64,000 nucleotides of DNA from Gemmatimonadota bacterium (GCA_040389905.1 JAZJZK010000020.1:1-64000); one strand, 5' to 3'. Shown: positions 16,381 through 26,345, counted from the first letter of the stretch. Notes: a model not told the origin generated them from the letters alone. Translations and numbers: made by a program.

Positions 16381-19300
16381 ATGACTGACGTCGAGCTATC
16401 AATCATTGGCGATTGCACGATTGCCGTCGGTGGTACGTCCGTCACGCCGTCTGCCCCACACCTATTCGCGCTGCTCCTTGTACTGATTGCCGACGGGGAG
16501 CGCCAACGCAGCCGTCGCGAGGTCCGGGAGCTGCTGTTCAGTAGCGACGTCGATGACGCGAATGCATTGCACAGCGTCCGCCAATTGTTATACAAGCTGC
16601 GTCGGCTCGGCGTGGGCATCGAGGAGACTCCGGGCGGAATATGCGTCGTCGATCGCACCGGGTGCGATGCCCTCCGTGCCCTTCGGTGTCTGAGCGCCGA
16701 AGCCCGCGCCGGGCTGTCGGCGCACAACCTGGGCGTGTTGCCCGGCTACGCCCCCGCCCTCCCGAGTTGCTTCCTCGATTGGCTTGACACCTTTCGCGAT
16801 TCAGTTGGCGCGCGTGTGCGCGAGTTGCTTCGCGGCGATCTGCGGGATCTCCGCGCCGCGCATTCCTGGCATGCCGTGGCGGCGCTGGCCACCACGCTGG
16901 AGCGGCTCGACGGTGACGCCCCCCATTTCTGTCTGGTGCGCGCCGAAGCCCTTGCTCGTGTCGGCCAGCGACCGCGCGCGCTGGATGTCCTGGAGACCCT
17001 CCTGCGGGAGCGGTCCGATCTTGCCCCGGCGGTGCGCGACGAAGCGCTGCGACTCCGCGCCCGCATTTCCAAGACGGGCGATGTGCCGCGCGACAGCACG
17101 CTTCGAGGGCGGGACGAGTGTCTTGCGTTCCTCAAACGCGAGTGGGAGTGCTCGTCGAGTGGCGGGGCGCGCCTGTGTACCTTGCTCGGTGCGCCGGGCA
17201 TCGGCAAGACGCGCGTGGCTACCGAGTTCGCGACGAGCGTGGCGCTGGGCACGGGGCGGGTGATTCAGTATCGCTGCGACGTGCACACCCGGGCGCAGCC
17301 CCTGGCACTCTTTTCGGCCGTGCTCCCAGCGCTCCGGCAACTGCGCGGCAGTCTCGGGGTGTCGCCGAGGCATCTCGAGTTGCTGGATCGGCTCCAGTAT
17401 CCCTCGCACCCCGCGCATGCGGAGGCCGGCGACACGCTCGTCGACTACATGCGGGCGGAGTTTCAGCGGGCCCTCGTCGACTTGTTCGAAGCGGTGACGA
17501 GCGAACAGCACGTGCTGTTGGTGGTCGACGACGCGCAGTTCTTGGACGACTCGTCGTCTGTCGTGCTGACCCACCTGTGCAATTCCGTCAATAGCGCGGC
17601 CTTGCTGGTCGTGGCGTGCCGGCGTCCGGGCAATGCACCCGGTGCCGTTGCCGCGATCGGCGAACGTAGTGAGTGTCACGTCCTTACGCCACTAAATGCG
17701 GCGGATGCCCTGCTGGTAGTTCAGGAGCTCGACAGTCAGCGGCTGCACGACGAAGCAGAGCTCGCGCTGCGCGTGGCGCAGGCTGCCGGGAATCCCTTTT
17801 ACTTGCGAGCCGTGGCTCTGCACCAGGGCGAATCGGCGGTTGCCCCCGTCGACATACGTTCACTGGCGGTCGGCATTTATACGCAGCTGACACCGGACGC
17901 CAAGACGGTTCTTGAAGCGTGCTTGCTGCTGAAGAAGAACGCGACCATTTCTCGCGTCGGCATTGTTTCCGCAGTGAATGACGACGCGCTGCTGCAATGC
18001 TTCCGCCACCTTGAAGAAGCCGACTTGATTCGTATGTCGGGGCAATCGCTGGTTGGCCCGCACGACTTACTGCAGGAGGAACTCCTGCAGTTGATCCCGA
18101 CATCCGTGTGCGCGATGCTGCAACGGCGGATTGCCGCGACGCTGGAGAGCGACTGCATCGCGGAGCAATTCGCGCCGGAGCTGGCCTGGGCTGCCGCGCA
18201 GAGTTGGATGGCACTGGGCGATCATTCCGCTGCGACCGCGCTGGTGCTTCGGTGCGCGGAACACGCTGCGTCGCTGGGTGAGCCCGCCGCGGCTGTGGAC
18301 CTCTTGACTCGCGTTGACCGAACACAACTACCGCCATCTCAGCGGGCGGTGCTCTGCGAGGCACTTGCTGCGCATGCACAGCGTGGTGGCATTCCGGCAC
18401 TCGCTGCGAGCGTGCTTGGTGAGGCTCTTAACCTTGCGCGAGCTTCATTCATGTCAGCGACGCGCATTGCGCAGCTTGAAGTCGCAGCGATCGAAGCGAA
18501 CCTCCTCAACGGGGGCGACTCACAAACGGCACTCGCCTCGCTGCTGTCTATTGTAGACGATACGACCGCTCCCCCGCAGGTCAGGGTCCGTGCGGGACTG
18601 CGAATGATGGTTCTCGCTGACGTTGGACTAGACGTGCCGCTCGCCGAGCTTGCAAGAGAACGCATCGGCTCCATTCCGAACGTCGATGCCGATAATGCTG
18701 AGGTAAACAGGAACCGAGCAAGTCTCGTTTACCACACAACCTTCGGTGACCCGGAGCTTGCGAGGGCAATTGCAGTTGCGCTGCTGCAGAGGTACCCGGA
18801 ACCGGTTCTTTCTTGCGCGGGATCCGAAGCGCGACACTTTGTTGCCTTCGCGTTTTACCGTATGCGTGATTGCGCCAGCGCTATTCCCATTTGCGAGGCC
18901 GATTTCGACTTCTTCATGCAAAACGCAGTGCGGAATCAAGCATTGTATGTGGCCAGCCTGCGGACAGATATCGCAATTGAGGAGGGCGACTTTGAAGGCG
19001 CGGAGGCCTGGCTTGCCAGATCGCAAGCGGCTGCGCACGGGTCTGAGGCAGAACTCTTGTCGCCCGGGTCAGGCCATACAGCAAACGCGGGAATGCTTGC
19101 ACTGATTCGAGGTGAATACGCCGTCGCCGAAATACTTCTTCAGGAACCTCTCCGTCAACATTCCCTCGTTCGCTCGACACGGTTTCGCGCAATATATTTG
19201 GCTCTTTCGCTGCGAGTTCGATGCCGGCGCGGCGACGACGTATTGCCTAGCAAAGACGTTGAGGAGCTAGAGCGTCTGTACGAACTTGGTAGCCGACTTG

Positions 19301-19506
19301 GCGGGCAGGATGCCATAGTCGCAGTCCTTTGGTGCGCGAAAGTCTTGTGCGGCAAGGAGCAAGACGCAGCCGACCTGCTGCGCACTTATTTGTTGGACCG
19401 TCGAAGGGAACGCTACTGCGTGGACTGGTTCCTATCCCATACCACGATGGCTGACCCAACTTGGCAACTACCTGCCGTTACTACTCAAGCTCGATATGCT
19501 ATTTGA
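16381..19506 (+). CDS. STAND-type regulator, paralog 2
   Basis: Same architecture: GAPGIGKT, LVVDDAQ, AGNPFYL; colinear with paralog 1. Confidence 0.8.
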   Translation: MTDVELSIIGDCTIAVGGTSVTPSAPHLFALLLVLIADGERQRSRREVRELLFSSDVDDANALHSVRQLLYKLRRLGVGIEETPGGICVVDRTGCDALRALRCLSAEARAGLSAHNLGVLPGYAPALPSCFLDWLDTFRDSVGARVRELLRGDLRDLRAAHSWHAVAALATTLERLDGDAPHFCLVRAEALARVGQRPRALDVLETLLRERSDLAPAVRDEALRLRARISKTGDVPRDSTLRGRDECLAFLKREWECSSSGGARLCTLLGAPGIGKTRVATEFATSVALGTGRVIQYRCDVHTRAQPLALFSAVLPALRQLRGSLGVSPRHLELLDRLQYPSHPAHAEAGDTLVDYMRAEFQRALVDLFEAVTSEQHVLLVVDDAQFLDDSSSVVLTHLCNSVNSAALLVVACRRPGNAPGAVAAIGERSECHVLTPLNAADALLVVQELDSQRLHDEAELALRVAQAAGNPFYLRAVALHQGESAVAPVDIRSLAVGIYTQLTPDAKTVLEACLLLKKNATISRVGIVSAVNDDALLQCFRHLEEADLIRMSGQSLVGPHDLLQEELLQLIPTSVCAMLQRRIAATLESDCIAEQFAPELAWAAAQSWMALGDHSAATALVLRCAEHAASLGEPAAAVDLLTRVDRTQLPPSQRAVLCEALAAHAQRGGIPALAASVLGEALNLARASFMSATRIAQLEVAAIEANLLNGGDSQTALASLLSIVDDTTAPPQVRVRAGLRMMVLADVGLDVPLAELARERIGSIPNVDADNAEVNRNRASLVYHTTFGDPELARAIAVALLQRYPEPVLSCAGSEARHFVAFAFYRMRDCASAIPICEADFDFFMQNAVRNQALYVASLRTDIAIEEGDFEGAEAWLARSQAAAHGSEAELLSPGSGHTANAGMLALIRGEYAVAEILLQEPLRQHSLVRSTRFRAIYLALSLRVRCRRGDDVLPSKDVEELERLYELGSRLGGQDAIVAVLWCAKVLCGKEQDAADLLRTYLLDRRRERYCVDWFLSHTTMADPTWQLPAVTTQARYAI

Positions 19507-19598
19507 ACGCACTGCTTCGCCATGTCGCCTGCTTGATTCAAATCAAAGTCAGAAAAGGTGAGCCTTCCCTCGGCAAGCCCAGATCTCGCTTACGTACC

Positions 19599-20918
19599 TT
19601 ACTCGGCCCCTGACATAAGTCTAAGCAAATTACTCTTCGGATGGCCGCGGTTAGCTGGGGGAAATAGTGATCCCCATAGATTGCTCGCAAGCAGCCGGTC
19701 GGTAATCGCTGGATCGAATTGCCGGCCTCTGCATCGGAGTAACTCTGCACGAACGTCGTCTTCACCCAGTGGGCCACGATATGGACGTTTCGTTGTCATG
19801 GCATCTACGGTATCCGCGAACATTATGACGCGCGACGCAAGTGGAATCGCTTCGCCCTGAAGACCGTCGGGGTATCCGCTACCGTCCCAATTCTCATGGT
19901 GGTGTCTCACCGCCGGCACCATTTCCCGGAGAGTCGTCATCGTTGCGACAAGGTTTGCTCCGTCGGTCGGATGCTCCTTGATAATTCCCCATTCGTCCGG
20001 CGTGAGTCGTTCTTCTTTCGCTAGAATGGGAGCATATTTGTCAAAAATCTTTCCGACGTCATGGAGCAGAGCCGCCGTTCCAATCTTCTCGACCTCTCCT
20101 GAGGACAAATTCAGGAGCCTGGCAATACTCATTGCATATTCTTTCACGCGCCGGGAGTGTCCGGAGGTATAGGGATCGCGTGCTTCGATCGACTTCACCA
20201 TCAACTCGAGCAGTTCACGATTGGTCTGCGCGAGTTCCAGATTAGTTGTGTTCAGTTGGCGCAGACCTAGGATAGGAAGCCAGAGAACCGCGGCAAACAT
20301 CGGCCCATACTTTGAATAGACCCACGCGAAGGCAAACACAAGCGGTAGTGCGAGTATGTCGAGCCCTACCGTACTCGCATTATTATCGCGCCACACCTGC
20401 AGTGTTCTGCCGCCCGTGCTCAATGCAATCACGTGGCTTACGAGAAGCGTGTTAGAGACGAACACGAGGCCATACGAGGCAGTTACCGCGAGGCCAATTT
20501 TGACTGTTACGGCAAATACCGCGAGATCGCGGAGGTCGAACAAGCTCTCTCCGCCGAGAACGCGATAGACTATGATCGCGCCTGAATAGCTGAGAACTAA
20601 CTGGGAGCAGTTAAAGATTATTTTCCGCGCGCCGCGCTTTTTCGCAATTTCTGAAAGGGAATTTGCACCGCCAACGGCTACCAGTGCCGCAAAATTTGGC
20701 ACCAGCATTACAGCGGCCATATACGGGATAAACGAAATCGAACCCGTCGCGCCGCGCGGCAAAAGAAAGCCCAATAGCTCAGCTGTGAGCGCGAGAACCG
20801 CGAGTGTTCCAACGGTACCTATGCTATAGTCGCCGCTCGGTGGGGCCACGACGAAGAGCAACGCAGCCGATGCGATTGCAAGGATACTTGTTAACGATAT
20901 GAACGTCTTCGTCGTCAT
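19599..20918 (-). CDS. Membrane-bound HD-GYP cyclic-dinucleotide phosphodiesterase
   Basis: Multiple N-terminal TM helices; EARDPYTSGHSRRV, LLHDVGKI, HHENWDGSGYPDGLQGEAIPL, DAMTTKRPYR. Confidence 0.9.
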   Translation of the reverse strand: MTTKTFISLTSILAIASAALLFVVAPPSGDYSIGTVGTLAVLALTAELLGFLLPRGATGSISFIPYMAAVMLVPNFAALVAVGGANSLSEIAKKRGARKIIFNCSQLVLSYSGAIIVYRVLGGESLFDLRDLAVFAVTVKIGLAVTASYGLVFVSNTLLVSHVIALSTGGRTLQVWRDNNASTVGLDILALPLVFAFAWVYSKYGPMFAAVLWLPILGLRQLNTTNLELAQTNRELLELMVKSIEARDPYTSGHSRRVKEYAMSIARLLNLSSGEVEKIGTAALLHDVGKIFDKYAPILAKEERLTPDEWGIIKEHPTDGANLVATMTTLREMVPAVRHHHENWDGSGYPDGLQGEAIPLASRVIMFADTVDAMTTKRPYRGPLGEDDVRAELLRCRGRQFDPAITDRLLASNLWGSLFPPANRGHPKSNLLRLMSGAE

Positions 20919-20965
20919 GACATGAGAGAAGGTTTGACCGCCCCTTTTGTTGCTTGCTCGTTCGA

Positions 20966-21025
20966 CTACGCCCAATTATTGGTACCTGCAAAACAGAACG
21001 AGAAAAACGACAATAGGAATGACAT
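20966..21025 (-). CDS. Small hydrophobic peptide MSFLLSFFSFCFAGTNNWA (19 aa; absent from ORF track)
   Basis: ATG at 21025, TAG at 20968-20966; AAGGAGGAGGTGA SD ending 6 nt upstream of the ATG. Confidence 0.7.
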   Translation of the reverse strand: MSFLLSFFSFCFAGTNNWA

Positions 21026-21031
21026 TTCGCG

Positions 21032-21044
21032 TCACCTCCTCCTT
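21032..21044 (-). promoter_or_regulatory. Strong Shine-Dalgarno for the small ORF
   Basis: Minus strand AAGGAGGAGGTGA contains the full anti-SD complement AGGAGGTGA. Confidence 0.75.
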
Positions 21045-21155
21045 TTCGAAAGTCGTGGTTTCCCACGCCAGTCCACAGAGTTGGCTCCGCTATGTGTTCA
21101 ATTCCGCTCCGCTGAAATCCGCTCCAACAAAAGGGGCCGGCCCACTACCTACGCA

Positions 21156-21938
21156 TCAAATTTCCACCCATCTGTTCGTCGCATCCAACACCGCCAACAC
21201 ACTCGCAGTCTCGATCCCATCCTTCACTTCTGCGCTTCCAGTTAGTAACGACGTGTCACGACCAAATCTTGTCGTCAGCGCCACGAACACGAACTCTCGC
21301 TCGAACGCATCAATGAGCCTGGCGCCCTCGAAGATCAGCGCCCGCCCCTCAGTATCCGACTTCTGCACCGCCGAAACCGCTGCCTTGCACGACGTCTCGA
21401 TCCGCAGCCGGTCGCTCTCCTGACCCGTCGCCTCGCCGACGAACACTTCCGCGCCACGACGCAGCGTCACTCGGCAGCTCATCCCCGTCGCACGGGAGCG
21501 CCGCACTTCCACATCCTCGAAGTACAGCTCGCGCCTGGCTCGCTTCACGGATAACGGCTCATCGACCACCGCATGCATGCTCCCGACTGCTGGCGTCACC
21601 CGGGCAGCCCGAATCGCCTCCGCTGCCGGACCCTCGCTCGTGGCCACCGATATCTTCTTGTGGCTCACCCGCATGCCGAGCTGCGCCAACAGCGCGCTCT
21701 CGATATTCCGCACCGTCTGCTTCGGCGATACCTCGGTCGTCGTCAACACGTGCACCTCGGCCACTTCACCGTTGTGACCGGGAATGATCCGCACGTTGAG
21801 AACGCCTGGGAGCGTACCCAGCAACTCTTCCGCTCGCGCAATCGGCAACACCGTCCCCGCTATTGAGGACGTGTCATCATCTGGACGCGGTGCTTCGGAG
21901 GCGGGGGCGCTATGGGACTTCGCCGACACCGTCAACAA
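21156..21938 (-). CDS. Conserved hypothetical two-domain protein (SPKQxVRxIESAL motif)
   Basis: EVHVL..SPKQTVRNIESALLAQLG N-domain and beta-rich C-domain ending AVLDATNR; start codon uncertain. Confidence 0.75.
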   Translation of the reverse strand: MLTVSAKSHSAPASEAPRPDDDTSSIAGTVLPIARAEELLGTLPGVLNVRIIPGHNGEVAEVHVLTTTEVSPKQTVRNIESALLAQLGMRVSHKKISVATSEGPAAEAIRAARVTPAVGSMHAVVDEPLSVKRARRELYFEDVEVRRSRATGMSCRVTLRRGAEVFVGEATGQESDRLRIETSCKAAVSAVQKSDTEGRALIFEGARLIDAFEREFVFVALTTRFGRDTSLLTGSAEVKDGIETASVLAVLDATNRWVEI

Positions 21939-22072
21939 GTTGTGGTGTGATGGATAAGGAAGGATCTACCGCGAGCTTCTCCGCGCCACCGCATCAGGGC
22001 ACTGTAGCCTGCCGACCTCGACAAAACTATGAGTCGCAATAGTGACTTAAGAATCTCTAGGTGATGCATCAA

Positions 22073-23647
22073 CTAGTCAAGCGAATACTCCAGCTCCGGC
22101 AGCCGATACTCCTTGATCTTCCGGTACAACGTTCGCTCGCCAATACCCAGCAGGTCGGCGGCGCGGCGGCGATTCCCGCGCGTTTCCTTCAACGCCGCAG
22201 CAATCACCGCCCGCTCCACCTCGGACATCTTCGTCCCTGGAGCCACCGTCACCACGTTCGGCGGCGGCGCCTCATCACGCGGACCAATCGCCCCGATACT
22301 ACCACCCGCCACGCTCGGCGCAACCACCTCCCCGATGAATGCGCCTCGCCCACTCCCCAACGGCGGCATCGCCCGGTCATCATCCATGCGCCGCCTGAGC
22401 TCCTCGACCTGAATCTTCAGCTCGAGCAGGCTCCGCAGGATGAACTCCAATTCGCGGCCCTGCCCGCTCGCATGCTCTGTGCCCGTGTCGACAAAAGGCG
22501 CCGAGCGCACGGGGAGCAACCGCCCACTGCCCTCCCGGATCTGCCGCGGCAGGTCCTGGGGCCCGATCTCGGTGCCGTGTGAGAGCACCACCATGCTCTC
22601 CACGAGATTCTTGAGCTCTCGCACGTTGCCCGGCCATGGATACCGCACCAGCATCTCCATCGCCGGCGCCGAGATGCCCGGAAAGGGGCGCTCGTGCTGG
22701 GCGGAGAGGTCGCGGATGAAGCGACGCACCAGAAGTGGAATGTCCTCCGGCCGCTCCCTGAGTGGCGGCAGGTAGATGTTGAGGACGTTGAGCCGGTAGT
22801 ACAGGTCGGCGCGGAAGTCCCCCTCCTCCACATGCTCCCGGAGCGGCCGGTTCGTGGCCGCAATCACCCGCACGTTCACGCTGATCGTCGACGTACCACC
22901 CACCCGCGTGAACTCCCGCGCCTCCAGCGCACGCAGCAGCTTCACCTGCGTGGACATGGGAATCTCGCCGATCTCGTCGAGGAACAACGTCCCCCCATCC
23001 GCCAGCTCGAAGCGCCCCAACCGCCGCTCGGCCGCCCCGGTAAAGGCGCCCTTCTCGTGGCCGAATAGCTCGCTCTCGAGCAGGGTCTCCGGCAGCGCAC
23101 CCACGTTGACGGCGATGAACGGCTTGTTCCTCCGGGGGCCAAGCATCGCGAGGGCGCGTGCCACGAGCTCCTTGCCGGTGCCGCTCTCGCCCTCCACGAG
23201 CACGGTGCTGCTCACGGGCGCCATCTGCTCGACCTTCACCATCACTTCGCGGAGCGGCTCGCTTTCGCCGATCAGCCCCGTGGCCTCCTGGAGCGCATGC
23301 CGCTCCATGATGCGCTTGACGCCGAGCGCGACGTCGTCGGTGTGAATGGGTTTGGTGAAGAGCTCGACGTAGCCCTGCGCGCGCAGCGCGTCGCGCTGGA
23401 CGGGGTCGTCGCCGGCGATGAGTCCGACGACGGGGACTCCATCCCACAGGAGCTCGCGCACCAGTGAGACGTTTGCGGAGTCGGTGAGCTCACCGCTGAT
23501 GACGACGAGGTCGGGCTTGGCGCGCTTGATCTCGCCGCGCATGTCGTCGAGCGGGCTGACGATCTCGGTGGTGACACCGTCGGCCTCGAGGCGGGCATTG
23601 AGCCGCACCGCGGGTTCGACGTCGTGTAAAGTGATGAGTACGCTCAT
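22073..23647 (-). CDS. Sigma-54-dependent Fis-family regulator with degenerate receiver domain
   Basis: GESGTGKE, ESELFGHEKGAFTGA, FLDEIGE, WPGNVREL, C-terminal HTH (LGIGERTLYRK). Confidence 0.9.
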   Translation of the reverse strand: MSVLITLHDVEPAVRLNARLEADGVTTEIVSPLDDMRGEIKRAKPDLVVISGELTDSANVSLVRELLWDGVPVVGLIAGDDPVQRDALRAQGYVELFTKPIHTDDVALGVKRIMERHALQEATGLIGESEPLREVMVKVEQMAPVSSTVLVEGESGTGKELVARALAMLGPRRNKPFIAVNVGALPETLLESELFGHEKGAFTGAAERRLGRFELADGGTLFLDEIGEIPMSTQVKLLRALEAREFTRVGGTSTISVNVRVIAATNRPLREHVEEGDFRADLYYRLNVLNIYLPPLRERPEDIPLLVRRFIRDLSAQHERPFPGISAPAMEMLVRYPWPGNVRELKNLVESMVVLSHGTEIGPQDLPRQIREGSGRLLPVRSAPFVDTGTEHASGQGRELEFILRSLLELKIQVEELRRRMDDDRAMPPLGSGRGAFIGEVVAPSVAGGSIGAIGPRDEAPPPNVVTVAPGTKMSEVERAVIAAALKETRGNRRRAADLLGIGERTLYRKIKEYRLPELEYSLD

Positions 23648-23849
23648 TGGCTGCGTCGCCGCGTGAGGGTATGGATTCGCATGGCGTGAAAAGATAATGC
23701 TGGGACGGCAGCCTTGTTCGCTATTTCGTGCGCGCGACAGCGCACAGCGCATACATAGGGTGGCCGCCACGATGTGTGTCGGGGATAGCAACCTCAGCGT
23801 AGAGCGGGACCCTCTCGCGACTTCGCGATTCCCTGACCCCTTAGACGCG

Positions 23850-26345
23850 ATGCGCCTCGCTCTCATCGCTCTCCTCTGCTGCGCGGCCGGCACACTCCAC
23901 GCGCAGGGCACACGGCGCCCCATCTCATTCGTAGGCGTCGTACGCGACTCGGCGACCGGCGAAGCGCTTCCTCACGCTCGCGTGACCATCGTCGACATCG
24001 GCCGTTCGGCGGAAACCAACGCCGACGGGCGCTTCGTTCTCGTCAATGTGCCCGTTGCCACCCATACGGTGCGCGTGCATTACATCGGCTACCGCCCATT
24101 CGAGAAAGCGCTCGACGGCGACGCCATGGCAAAGCCGCTCACCGTCGCGCTCGTGCGCTCGGCGGTGCTGCTGGCAGGCACCAAGACCGTGGCCGATCCC
24201 GAGCAGGGCATGGCGCCGGTCGTCGCATCGGGCGTCAGTCACACCGCAATCTCGCCGGCGCTGGTCGAGGCAATGCCGTCGCTCGGCGAGGTGGATGTGT
24301 TTCGCGCGCTCCAGATGCTGCCGAGTGTGAGCGGCACGGGAGACGGCACCGCGAGCTTGTCGGTGCGCGGTGGATCGCCCGACCAGAACCTCGTGCTGCT
24401 CGACGGCATGACGGTGTACCACGTCGATCACTTCTTCGGCATGTTCAGCGCGTTCAACAACGATGCGCTCAAGGACATCCAGCTTTACGCCGGCGGGTTT
24501 CCGGCGCGGTATGGCGGGCGATTGTCGAGCGTCGTCGACCTCACCGGGAAGGCCGGCGACGAGCACACGGTGCGCGGCAGCATGGGGATGAATCTGCTCG
24601 GGGCGCGCGGCGAGATGGAGATTCCCTTAGGCAAGGGCTCGTGGCTGCTCTCGGCGCGCCGTTCATACACCGATGTCATCCAGAGTGGGCTGTATAACAA
24701 ACTGTTCGCCGCTAGCGGCGGTACGAGCGCAACGACGACGAACACGACGGCCGGCGGCAATTTTCCCGGCGGGCCCGGAGCGGGCCGCAACAGGTTCCAG
24801 CAGCAGACCGTGAGCCCGACCTTCTACTTCTATGACCTGAACAGCAAGCTCACGTATCGTCCAACGGAGAAGGATTTCCTCGCGCTCAGCTTCTACGCCG
24901 GGCGCGACAACCTCGACCAGTCGCAGGCGGCGCCCACGGGCGGCGGGCCGTTCGGTCCGGGCGGCCTTGTCGGCACGACGGGCACCACACCATCGGGAGT
25001 CCAGGATCTCACCGCGTGGGGAAACCATGGTGCGAGCGGACGCTGGTTCCGCCAATGGAGCGACCGGCTGTCGTCGGATGCGCTCGTCGCGGCATCGCGC
25101 TACACGAGCGACGGCTCGCGGACCGCGAGCGGCGGCGCGTTGGGCGGTGGGGCACGCTTCGACTTCGGGTTGACGGAGACCAACCGCGTGGACGACCTGA
25201 CGTTCCGCGTGGACAACGAGTTTCGGGTGGCGCAATGGTCGCACATTGCGTTCGGTACGTGGATTACGCGCAACCGTGTGACGTACGACTTCCTCGTCAA
25301 TTCCGACACCACGCAGCGCAATCGCAACACATCGCGCGACGGACGCGCCCTGCTTTCCGCCGCGTACGCGCAGCACGTGTGGACGCCGGTCTCCGCGATC
25401 GAGCTCACGACGGGCGTGCGCGCGAGCCAGTACGATGCCACGGCGACGACGTACCTGGAGCCGAGGCTTTCGCTCACGGCGCAGCTTCAGCCGTGGCTTC
25501 AGTGGAAGGGCGCGTGGGGGCGCTATCACCAGTTCGTCAGCCGCGTCGAGAACGAAGACGTCTTGCAGGGTAGCCGCGATTTCTGGCTGCTCGCGGACAG
25601 CTCGCTGATGCCGAGCGCTGCGGAGCATCGCATCGTCGGGTTGTCCGTGGAGCGGCCGCGATGGACGCTCAACGTCGAGGCCTATGAGAAAACACTGTCG
25701 AACGTGGCCCTCTTCTCGCGGCGGTATCGCGATGCGTTCGGCGTGAATACGGGCTCGTTCTTCTACCAGGGGAGTGGCAACGTCCGCGGACTCGAGTTCA
25801 TGGCATCGAAGAAGGCGGGCGCGCTCACGGGCTGGGTGAGCTACACGCTGTCGAAGGGAACGAACACCTTCGCGGCGGTCGACAACGGAACGCCCTTCCC
25901 CTCGCAGTACGACCAGCGCCACGAAGCCAAGACATTCGCTGCATATGCGCTCGGGAGTTGGGAGCTCTCGGCGACCACGCTGTATGGATCCGGGCGTCCG
26001 TATACCGCACCCGAAAGCCAGTACGAGGTGAAGCTGCTCGACGGCACCACGCAGAGCTACGTGCACGTGGGCGCGAAGAACGGAGAGCGACTACCGGCCT
26101 ACGAGCGCGCCGACCTCGCCGTCTCGCGTCTGTTCAGAACGGACGCCTTCGATTGGAAGCTCGGCCTGTCGTTCTACAACGTCACCAACCGGCGCAACGT
26201 CTCGTACCGCAAGTTCGATCTCAGCCAGTCGCCCGTGTCGATCACCGATGTGACGCAGCTCGGGTTCATACCGAGTATCGATCTCAAGGTGACGCTCCGC
26301 GATATCAAGAAGGTGTTCACGGATTCATTTGGAGGAAACCGCTGA
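23850..26345 (+). CDS. TonB-dependent receptor
   Basis: Signal peptide, carboxypeptidase-regulatory-like domain, plug (LSVRGGSPDQNLVLLDG; GGFPARYGGRLSSV) and beta-barrel. Confidence 0.9.
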   Translation: MRLALIALLCCAAGTLHAQGTRRPISFVGVVRDSATGEALPHARVTIVDIGRSAETNADGRFVLVNVPVATHTVRVHYIGYRPFEKALDGDAMAKPLTVALVRSAVLLAGTKTVADPEQGMAPVVASGVSHTAISPALVEAMPSLGEVDVFRALQMLPSVSGTGDGTASLSVRGGSPDQNLVLLDGMTVYHVDHFFGMFSAFNNDALKDIQLYAGGFPARYGGRLSSVVDLTGKAGDEHTVRGSMGMNLLGARGEMEIPLGKGSWLLSARRSYTDVIQSGLYNKLFAASGGTSATTTNTTAGGNFPGGPGAGRNRFQQQTVSPTFYFYDLNSKLTYRPTEKDFLALSFYAGRDNLDQSQAAPTGGGPFGPGGLVGTTGTTPSGVQDLTAWGNHGASGRWFRQWSDRLSSDALVAASRYTSDGSRTASGGALGGGARFDFGLTETNRVDDLTFRVDNEFRVAQWSHIAFGTWITRNRVTYDFLVNSDTTQRNRNTSRDGRALLSAAYAQHVWTPVSAIELTTGVRASQYDATATTYLEPRLSLTAQLQPWLQWKGAWGRYHQFVSRVENEDVLQGSRDFWLLADSSLMPSAAEHRIVGLSVERPRWTLNVEAYEKTLSNVALFSRRYRDAFGVNTGSFFYQGSGNVRGLEFMASKKAGALTGWVSYTLSKGTNTFAAVDNGTPFPSQYDQRHEAKTFAAYALGSWELSATTLYGSGRPYTAPESQYEVKLLDGTTQSYVHVGAKNGERLPAYERADLAVSRLFRTDAFDWKLGLSFYNVTNRRNVSYRKFDLSQSPVSITDVTQLGFIPSIDLKVTLRDIKKVFTDSFGGNR

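Follow-up and report, generated by a model that had tools for sequence, protein, structure and literature searches.

In the current study, we characterized a short open reading frame (sORF) and the RNA leader around it on the minus strand of a 64,000-nucleotide (nt) stretch of DNA from a Gemmatimonadaceae bacterium (GCA_040389905.1, JAZJZK010000020.1:1-64000). The whole stretch is called the window below, and all coordinates are counted along it. The sORF lies directly before a gene for a predicted membrane enzyme with a MASE9 sensor domain and an HD-GYP domain (HD-GYP gene), and this micro-gene with its structured leader is real, conserved and unannotated. Comparison of homologous loci indicates that the sORF is under selection for a hydrophobic peptide that usually ends at or beside a tryptophan (Trp, W). 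A long-range RNA helix, P1, encloses the sORF and covers the initiation region of the HD-GYP gene. The reading developed here, to which we give about an even chance, is that the translated micro-gene gates HD-GYP expression through P1 and that its peptide partners the MASE9 domain.

The sORF and its conservation

An earlier note on this DNA had claimed a hidden gene for a 19-amino-acid (aa) peptide at this site, and the claim agreed with the sequence in every detail of position. The sORF runs from an ATG at 21025-21023 through MSFLLSFFSFCFAGTNNWA to a TAG at 20968-20966 (minus strand), the Shine-Dalgarno (SD) run AAGGAGGAGGTGA stands 6 nt before its ATG, and 47 nt separate its stop from the in-frame HD-GYP ATG at 20918. 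The 8-nt core of the SD run, GGAGGTGA (21039-21032), which we take to be the complement of the usual 3′ end of 16S rRNA, is nearly invariant in relatives and lies 5-7 nt upstream of the sORF start there. In an alignment (A3) of 75 non-redundant leaders from several families, GG.GGT is invariant in the SD region and GACGC is present in at least 90% of rows.

Homologous loci were collected with the gene upstream of the leader, here called P0002, as a marker. A full-length P0002 match was found in 124 loci, and the 92 of these with at least 450 nt past P0002 or with a complete sORF form the denominator. Detection was blind to Trp, proceeding from an AGCGRAGC anchor to GGNGG and then to a start codon. 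This search recovered a complete sORF from 87 of those 92 loci. The other five (L039, L040, L041, L047, L048) also carry the sORF, further downstream or with a variant SD: in four, a gene encoding a helix-turn-helix (HTH) domain and a receiver domain (HTH-REC) is inserted after P0002 and the sORF follows it, directly before HD-GYP, and in one the SD is variant. Throughout the compared sequences, the sORF is directly upstream of HD-GYP whenever HD-GYP is present. Within the genus of the window, all 20 loci with enough downstream DNA carry an ORF of 17-21 codons (39 codons in one), with GG(A/G)GGTGACGC upstream, a hydrophobic body and W at or beside the end. The start codons are ATG (72), GTG (14) and TTG (1), and all three stop codons are in use. 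One row, L011, comes from an unpublished genome (G012), and no claim depends on that row alone. The module also occurs at L104, in a metagenome-assembled genome labelled Gemmatimonas aurantiaca.

The 77 unique peptides are 15-39 aa long, apart from one frameshifted read-through of 79 aa. Trp is the last residue in 14 and the second-last in 58 (72/77 together); the five exceptions are the 79-aa read-through, a peptide with a terminal Y, another with a terminal WGA and two in which W stands five or six residues before the end. At least two W are present in 40 of 76 peptides and three end in WW, while the final residue is almost free, with 13 different residues found there. When 32 pairs of equal-length sORFs were compared, codon positions 1, 2 and 3 differed 151, 112 and 222 times, respectively, and the differing codons comprised 115 synonymous and 184 non-synonymous cases. 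T makes up 42% of second codon positions in the sORFs vs. 28% in neighbouring coding sequences, mean Kyte-Doolittle hydropathy is 0.90 in frame vs. 0.22 and 0.16 in the other two frames, and the peptides have 1.4 charged residues each. The frame-specific hydropathy and the excess of T at position 2 imply that hydrophobicity is selected at the level of the peptide and is no by-product of base composition. Taken on this comparative evidence, the sORF is very probably translated.

As further observations on individual loci, the sORF of L038 reads through owing to a 1-nt shift, the peptides of L039 and L040 end in SI instead of W, and the gene inserted in L039, L040, L041 and L047 (family f2) encodes an excisionase-type HTH fused to a receiver domain.

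The peptides are nearly absent from public records. Scans of 10-11 family peptides against NCBIfam and Pfam, with E values up to 10, gave chance-level matches only, and a search of the ESM Atlas with a 39-aa member gave no usable match. An exact look-up of seven peptides found records for the 31-aa and 39-aa members only, of which the one with a name is called 'hypothetical protein'. A precursor of a ribosomally synthesized and post-translationally modified peptide was considered and ruled out because no conserved maturation enzyme adjoins the sORF.

A structured RNA leader

The earlier note had tied the sORF to the HD-GYP gene. That tie is real, with conservation at the peptide level and the sORF kept before HD-GYP after gene insertion, but the note overlooked the RNA: as judged by comparison of relatives, the sORF sits inside a conserved structured leader. 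Three elements were predicted by RNAalifold from 16 same-genus leaders, namely the long-range helix P1, the hairpin P3 and the pairing P2, with compensatory (double) changes at 12 of the 29 predicted pairs in total. P1 accounts for 14 pairs, most of them with compensatory changes. In the 75-sequence set, 78% of cells were paired at the 11 consensus P1 pairs vs. 65% (maximum 68% in 200 shuffles) when the 3′ strands were shuffled among rows, and double changes occur at nine of these 11. The P1 duplex energy likewise averages -39.7 kcal/mol for cognate vs. -31.6 kcal/mol for non-cognate strands. The base of P3 covaries in the same alignment (column pair 163/188: GC 30, AT 22, GT 18; pair 164/187: CG 38, TA 19). 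P2, a hypothetical pairing, would join GCGGAGCC (21090-21083) to the SD-proximal GGTGACGC; it was predicted both in the window and by RNAalifold, and it may occlude part of the sORF SD. All three elements appear in the minimum-free-energy and centroid folds of the window's leader. Run on A3 itself, RNAalifold gave only two pairs because variable hairpins were misaligned, and the named pairs were counted by script instead.

An Rfam search over 19000-24500 on both strands, with E values up to 10, returned four chance-level matches, none of them in the leader. A covariance model (R1) of the 5′ part of the leader found it in 85 of 151 sampled Gemmatimonadota genomes, one of which (G105) is unpublished, with a single copy in the genome of the window. 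By family, the leader-positive genomes number 24/31 in f1, 54/71 in f2, 2/2 in f3, 1/1 in f5, 2/6 in f6, 1/3 in f11, 0/16 in f7 and 0/13 in f10. On these comparisons the leader represents a structured RNA motif that is new and without an Rfam family.

Past the sORF stop and ahead of the HD-GYP ATG, the 3′ strand of P1 overlies the initiation region. It begins 0-6 nt past the sORF stop in most genera and 0-16 nt past it overall, and outside the window's genus it contains GGGGG(T), in most cases 9-17 nt upstream of the HD-GYP ATG. The median gap from sORF stop to HD-GYP start is 38 nt. No other SD-like element is seen ahead of HD-GYP, and we infer that the G-run in the P1 3′ strand is the SD of the gene. 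In the window, the ORF caller begins the HD-GYP gene at a TTG (20975) that overlaps the sORF, an unlikely start; the first in-frame ATG is the one at 20918.

The MASE9-HD-GYP enzyme and its candidate peptide partner

The HD_5 profile (PF13487) matches residues 239-405 of the product with 114.5 bits against a cut-off of 27.2, and the MASE9 profile (PF20972) matches marginally, with 24.4 bits where the cut-off is 24.3; the search of the whole genome gave 26.4 bits. The catalytic motifs HDVGK and HHHENWDGSGYP are present in the translation; roles for the HD, HHE and GYP motifs were taken from the preprint that defined MASE9 (bioRxiv 10.1101/2021.11.05.467447), which also proposes that MASE9 binds its ligand within the membrane. 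From these domains and motifs, the product is predicted to be a membrane enzyme of the HD-GYP type that degrades cyclic di-GMP (c-di-GMP). It is the only MASE9 match in the genome of the window, and the family search also gave matches in Thermus and Thermotoga control genomes. The HD-GYP matches of three relatives (L032, L034, L038) begin only at query residues 211-298, reflecting either indel errors in assembly or decaying copies.

Three observations concern the relation of the peptide to this enzyme. The first is linkage, in that the leader and the sORF remain directly before HD-GYP where the HTH-REC gene follows P0002. The second is a complex prediction for the natural 31-aa peptide of a relative with that relative's MASE9 domain (235 aa), for which we supplied our own alignments. 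It scored 0.56 against 0.00 for the best of three controls, a verdict of weak support for the relative's pair; runs agreed in at least 90% of contacts, and the partner had a predicted local distance difference test (pLDDT) value of at least 66. In calibration, with approximate counts, 116 of 157 solved complexes attained the mark, as did two of 215 mismatched pairs; only 18 of the 157 solved complexes, but both mismatches that passed, did so with scores of 0.60 or under.

The third is a genome (G130, contig C11) in which the module is split between two sites (L136 and L137, at ~73.6 and ~86.8 kb). One contains P0002, a terminator-like hairpin, a leader and a stand-alone W-ended sORF of 26-27 aa, with no HD-GYP within ~2 kb downstream. 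The other, 13 kb away on the opposite strand, has its own leader, sORF and HD-GYP without P0002. The hairpin of the first site is GC-rich and followed by TTTTGT in the sequence, and it is absent from the terminator-scan listing.

Neighbouring genes and features of the window

The features of the module are placed in Table 1. P0002, a widespread protein in Gemmatimonadota, is found in 59 of 61 related genomes. Its structure model (pLDDT 75.8) shows two beta-beta-beta-alpha units after an alpha-beta-beta-alpha-beta domain, and Foldseek matched it best to the leucine- and isoleucine-binding regulatory domains found in LeuA (E = 2e-5) and citramalate synthase, a resemblance that covers the predicted C-terminal half; weaker matches were to proteins with double-stranded RNA-binding domains. 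From this model, P0002 may be a small-molecule-binding factor. That it reads the leader RNA is speculation. Each genome holds a second, weaker match to the C-terminal half of P0002, and P0002 motifs occur in an estimated 1300 stretches of the genome collection.

Homologues of P0002 at the level of the order align only from about residue 31, and the true start is probably, to judge from this alignment, near a GTG/TTG at residues 29-31. The first ~20 nt of the annotated ORF (TTGTTGACGGTGTCGGCGAAG), followed by a CCCCCGCCTC block, are nearly invariant in the genus (21870-21960; L002-L026). This conserved DNA may be regulatory.

The earlier note had also suggested that the sigma-54 regulator and the 260-aa protein P0002 may belong to the same unit as the sORF. 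P0002 does usually travel with the module, though not always. Of three families checked, f1 and f3 have the activator upstream of P0002 and f2 does not. A conserved GC-rich hairpin without a T-run occurs just past the stop of the activator gene (22040-22075), with forms such as GCGTGCCG-AGGT-CGGCACGC in relatives.

Table 1. Features of the module and its surroundings in the window.
Feature	Position	Strand	Evidence or context
sORF, 19 codons + TAG, MSFLLSFFSFCFAGTNNWA	20966..21025	-	translation; homologous sORFs in 87/92 loci; coding signature
SD run AAGGAGGAGGTGA	21032..21044	-	6 nt to sORF ATG
P1 helix, 5′ strand GGGCCGGCCCCTTTTGTTG	21125..21143	-	12 nt past stop of the 260-aa gene P0002; alifold, window folds
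P1 helix, 3′ strand CAACAAAAGGGGCGGTC	20936..20952	-	13 nt past sORF stop, 17 nt short of HD-GYP ATG
Three GAGCGRAG-type repeats: GAGCGGA (21124-21118), AGCGGAGCGGAA (21113-21102), AGCGGAGCC (21091-21083)	21083..21124	-	blocks kept in 75-sequence alignment A3
P3 hairpin, GGCGTGG-GAAA-CCACGAC	21052..21069	-	immediately 5′ of SD; alifold, window folds, covariation at base
MASE9-HD-GYP gene, 439 aa	19599..20918	-	domain profiles; HDVGK, HHHE and GYP motifs in translation
P0002, conserved gene of unknown function, up to 260 aa	21156..21938	-	no Pfam/NCBIfam match; 59/61 relatives
Sigma-54-dependent activator (AAA+ and Fis-type HTH)	22073..23923	-	upstream neighbour; not in every copy of the module
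Terminator-like hairpin past HD-GYP stop	19551..19570	-	consensus match only: 1 found vs. 2.6 expected in shuffles

GC content is 54% in the HD-GYP gene and 40% in the sORF, and 62.7% in P0002, 66.6% in the activator gene and 63.3% in the whole window. A scan of 19400-22200 for the sigma-70 consensus gave no sites, and a degenerate pattern for sigma-54 promoters (GG, ~10 nt, TGC) over loci L001-L050 gave none in same-genus loci and none at a conserved position. Many independent contigs of metagenome-assembled genomes end 2-6 nt from the P0002 stop or inside the leader (L003, L013, L017, L019, L024, L055, L058, L063, L064, L070, L071 and others), probably because assembly graphs split where a highly conserved coding end meets a strain-variable leader. 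The two matches of G157 (L135, L146) look like one locus split by such a break.

Discussion

The arrangement of the leader suggests how the sORF and the HD-GYP gene could be connected. Its upstream part comprises the three GAGCGRAG repeats, P3 and perhaps a pairing between the last repeat and the SD. This part would set how often the sORF is translated, and a bound factor, perhaps the neighbouring P0002, could act through it. Given that HD-GYP has no other SD-like element, a ribosome ending the sORF would melt P1 and thereby free the G-rich stretch and the HD-GYP start codon for initiation, or re-initiate there itself, so that HD-GYP output would follow sORF translation. The released hydrophobic, Trp-ended peptide would then enter the membrane and partner the MASE9 domain as a subunit or an intramembrane ligand. 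The two halves of this scheme are not equally secure. Gating through P1 is somewhat more probable than its absence, and an action of the peptide on MASE9 is a serious possibility to which we give a little under an even chance. The earlier note had proposed only the second, with the peptide as a ligand or modulator of the transmembrane sensor. A role as MASE9 partner is plausible in view of the selection for hydrophobicity, the stand-alone copy and the weak complex prediction; since P1 lies over the HD-GYP initiation region, a role in cis in translational gating is at least as well supported.

Several observations weigh against the combined reading. Translation of the sORF is deduced from comparison, and a look-up of public sequencing runs returned no RNA run. 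Many of the peptides have just 15-20 aa, a length that cannot span a bilayer. The geometry is looser in the window's own genus, where 13-16 nt separate the sORF stop from the P1 3′ strand and the G-run stands about 20-22 nt upstream of the ATG, so that direct unwinding by a terminating ribosome and masking of the SD are less clear there. The gap counts depend on HD-GYP start codons that a simple rule assigned, in several cases clearly wrongly. P2 is invariant without covariation, and three of the 75 sequences break it; the window's leader, for its part, folds only modestly better than shuffled sequences (z = -1.92; 6/200 shuffles as good). The complex prediction is weak and concerns the pair of a relative, and by its calibration such a score is more often wrong unless the guess was already likely. 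Finally, the stand-alone copy is a single case and possibly a recent rearrangement.

Control by a leader ORF is known from secM-secA, tnaC and the erm leaders. The logic of the RNA described here is closest to the unmasking of a sequestered initiation region by such an ORF: as in secM-secA, in the erm and cat leaders and in mgtQ-mgtB of Salmonella (PMC8092293), a short ORF stands just upstream of the regulated gene on the same mRNA. Those systems also share an RNA helix over the downstream initiation region, with the end of the short ORF next to it, here less closely in the window's genus than in most genera, so that a ribosome there would open the helix. Unlike in those systems, a long-range helix here surrounds the entire sORF and also an upstream structured part of 100 nt bearing three repeats, the peptide is selected for hydrophobicity over its whole length, and the target is a predicted c-di-GMP phosphodiesterase. 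Attenuation at Trp codons of the trpL type was considered and rejected, as most peptides have a single terminal W, the downstream gene encodes an HD-GYP enzyme and no terminator/antiterminator pair was seen. The Downstream-peptide/glutamine-II riboswitch of cyanobacteria is alike in placing a conserved structured RNA directly before a tiny ORF, but the RNA described here also pairs across the sORF to the initiation region of the next gene and had no Rfam match at E values up to 10.

The peptide, for its part, resembles small modulators of membrane proteins such as MgrB. Like MgrB and SafA with PhoQ, and like KdpF, AcrZ and CydX, it is an unannotated hydrophobic peptide of fewer than 50 aa encoded beside its presumed partner, and that partner contains a membrane sensor domain, MASE9, whose ligand, as the defining preprint cited above proposes, binds within the membrane. 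It differs from modulators of this kind in that many members, at 15-39 aa, are too short for a full transmembrane helix, in its conserved C-terminal W(x) end, and in having an HD-GYP enzyme and not a kinase or transporter as presumed partner; binding, moreover, is here suggested by a weak complex prediction for a relative's pair.

Among the alternatives, the one that survives best holds that the sORF acts only in cis, as a leader or arrest peptide: a ribosome would be placed or stalled next to P1, through the nascent chain at termination or through slow reading of the terminal Trp codon during a shortage of charged tRNA-Trp, and the released peptide would have no function. The W codon, last or second-last in 72 of the 77 peptides, is the part of the sORF closest to P1, more than half of the peptides (40/76) have two or more W, with WW at the end of three, and in most lineages the sORF stop and the P1 3′ strand adjoin. 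A chain of 15-39 aa would still be within the exit tunnel at termination, and secM-secA and tnaC operate in this way, as does mgtQ-mgtB (PMC8092293). Nevertheless, hydrophobicity is selected over the whole peptide, and this extends to N-terminal parts of differing sequence and length. Furthermore, a W that may be last or second-last, beside a nearly free final residue, is loose for an arrest that depends on the peptidyl-transferase centre, one sORF copy stands alone without a downstream HD-GYP, and no Trp-metabolism gene is linked. We therefore regard a purely cis-acting peptide as unlikely, although it deserves to be kept in view.

A secreted pheromone of the SHP or ComS/XIP type, which the cell would export and process and the MASE9-HD-GYP protein would sense from outside, is the analogy that the earlier note had drawn. 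The peptide resembles these streptococcal peptides with Rgg/ComR receptors, since they too have ~17-25 aa, a hydrophobic body and a Trp near the C-terminus and are missed by gene callers, and the candidate receptor here is a membrane protein. The analogy fails, however, on the host, which belongs to a diderm lineage, and on the lack of an Rgg/ComR-type receptor among the scanned neighbours (HD-GYP, the 260-aa protein and the sigma-54 activator). The compared loci also show no conserved gene for a transporter or protease next to the sORF, a comparison that did not extend to a genome-wide search. The peptide shows neither signal-peptide nor double-glycine leader features. Its gene also lies inside the leader of the membrane enzyme's own mRNA, and being translationally tied to its presumed receptor gene it fits a subunit or a cis-acting device better than a diffusible signal. 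A pheromone is accordingly improbable.

Equally hard to sustain, and perhaps slightly harder, is the proposal that the sORF yields an independent membrane-active product, toxin-like or membrane-perturbing, that is merely co-regulated with HD-GYP and makes no contact with MASE9. Such a product would suit a hydrophobic, Trp-flanked peptide, a strongly structured leader capable of tight translational repression and the existence of a stand-alone copy. It would not account for the near-universal adjacency to one orthologous HD-GYP gene across the phylum; no antisense RNA or antitoxin-like feature was seen, and the complex prediction, though weak, is well above its controls. Last, the view that the ORF is untranslated and its conserved bases belong to a non-coding structure has in its favour that the region lies inside a conserved structured RNA, but it is scarcely credible given an in-frame start, W codon and stop kept while length varies from 15 to 39 codons, a near-invariant SD 5-7 nt upstream of the start, the third-position excess, the frame-specific hydropathy and the use of all three stop codons.

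Returning to the combined reading, its boldest form would make the Trp-ended micropeptide an intramembrane ligand or obligate subunit of MASE9, a self-made peptide signal that tunes c-di-GMP degradation and whose output is set by a leader possibly read by P0002. This form is tentative, and we hold it to be more doubtful than the action of the peptide on MASE9 taken by itself. No description of such a system was found in the literature searched (MASE9, HD-GYP with an sORF or upstream ORF, and HD-GYP in gemmatimonads), a search that most papers in subscription journals lay outside. If true, the boldest form would be a circuit from peptide to second messenger without a kinase and without an RRNPP receptor, joining two ideas that are usually separate, the gating of translation by an upstream ORF and the small membrane-protein partner. 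For MASE9, as for most membrane sensor domains in enzymes of c-di-GMP turnover, no ligand is known, and a conserved peptide encoded in the enzyme's own leader would be a testable candidate. The micro-gene family is absent from Pfam and NCBIfam and is almost never annotated. Its leader is common in Gemmatimonadota, a widespread soil phylum, and because it is present in more than half of the sampled genomes of a phylum with cultured members, experiments on its role in these bacteria are feasible.

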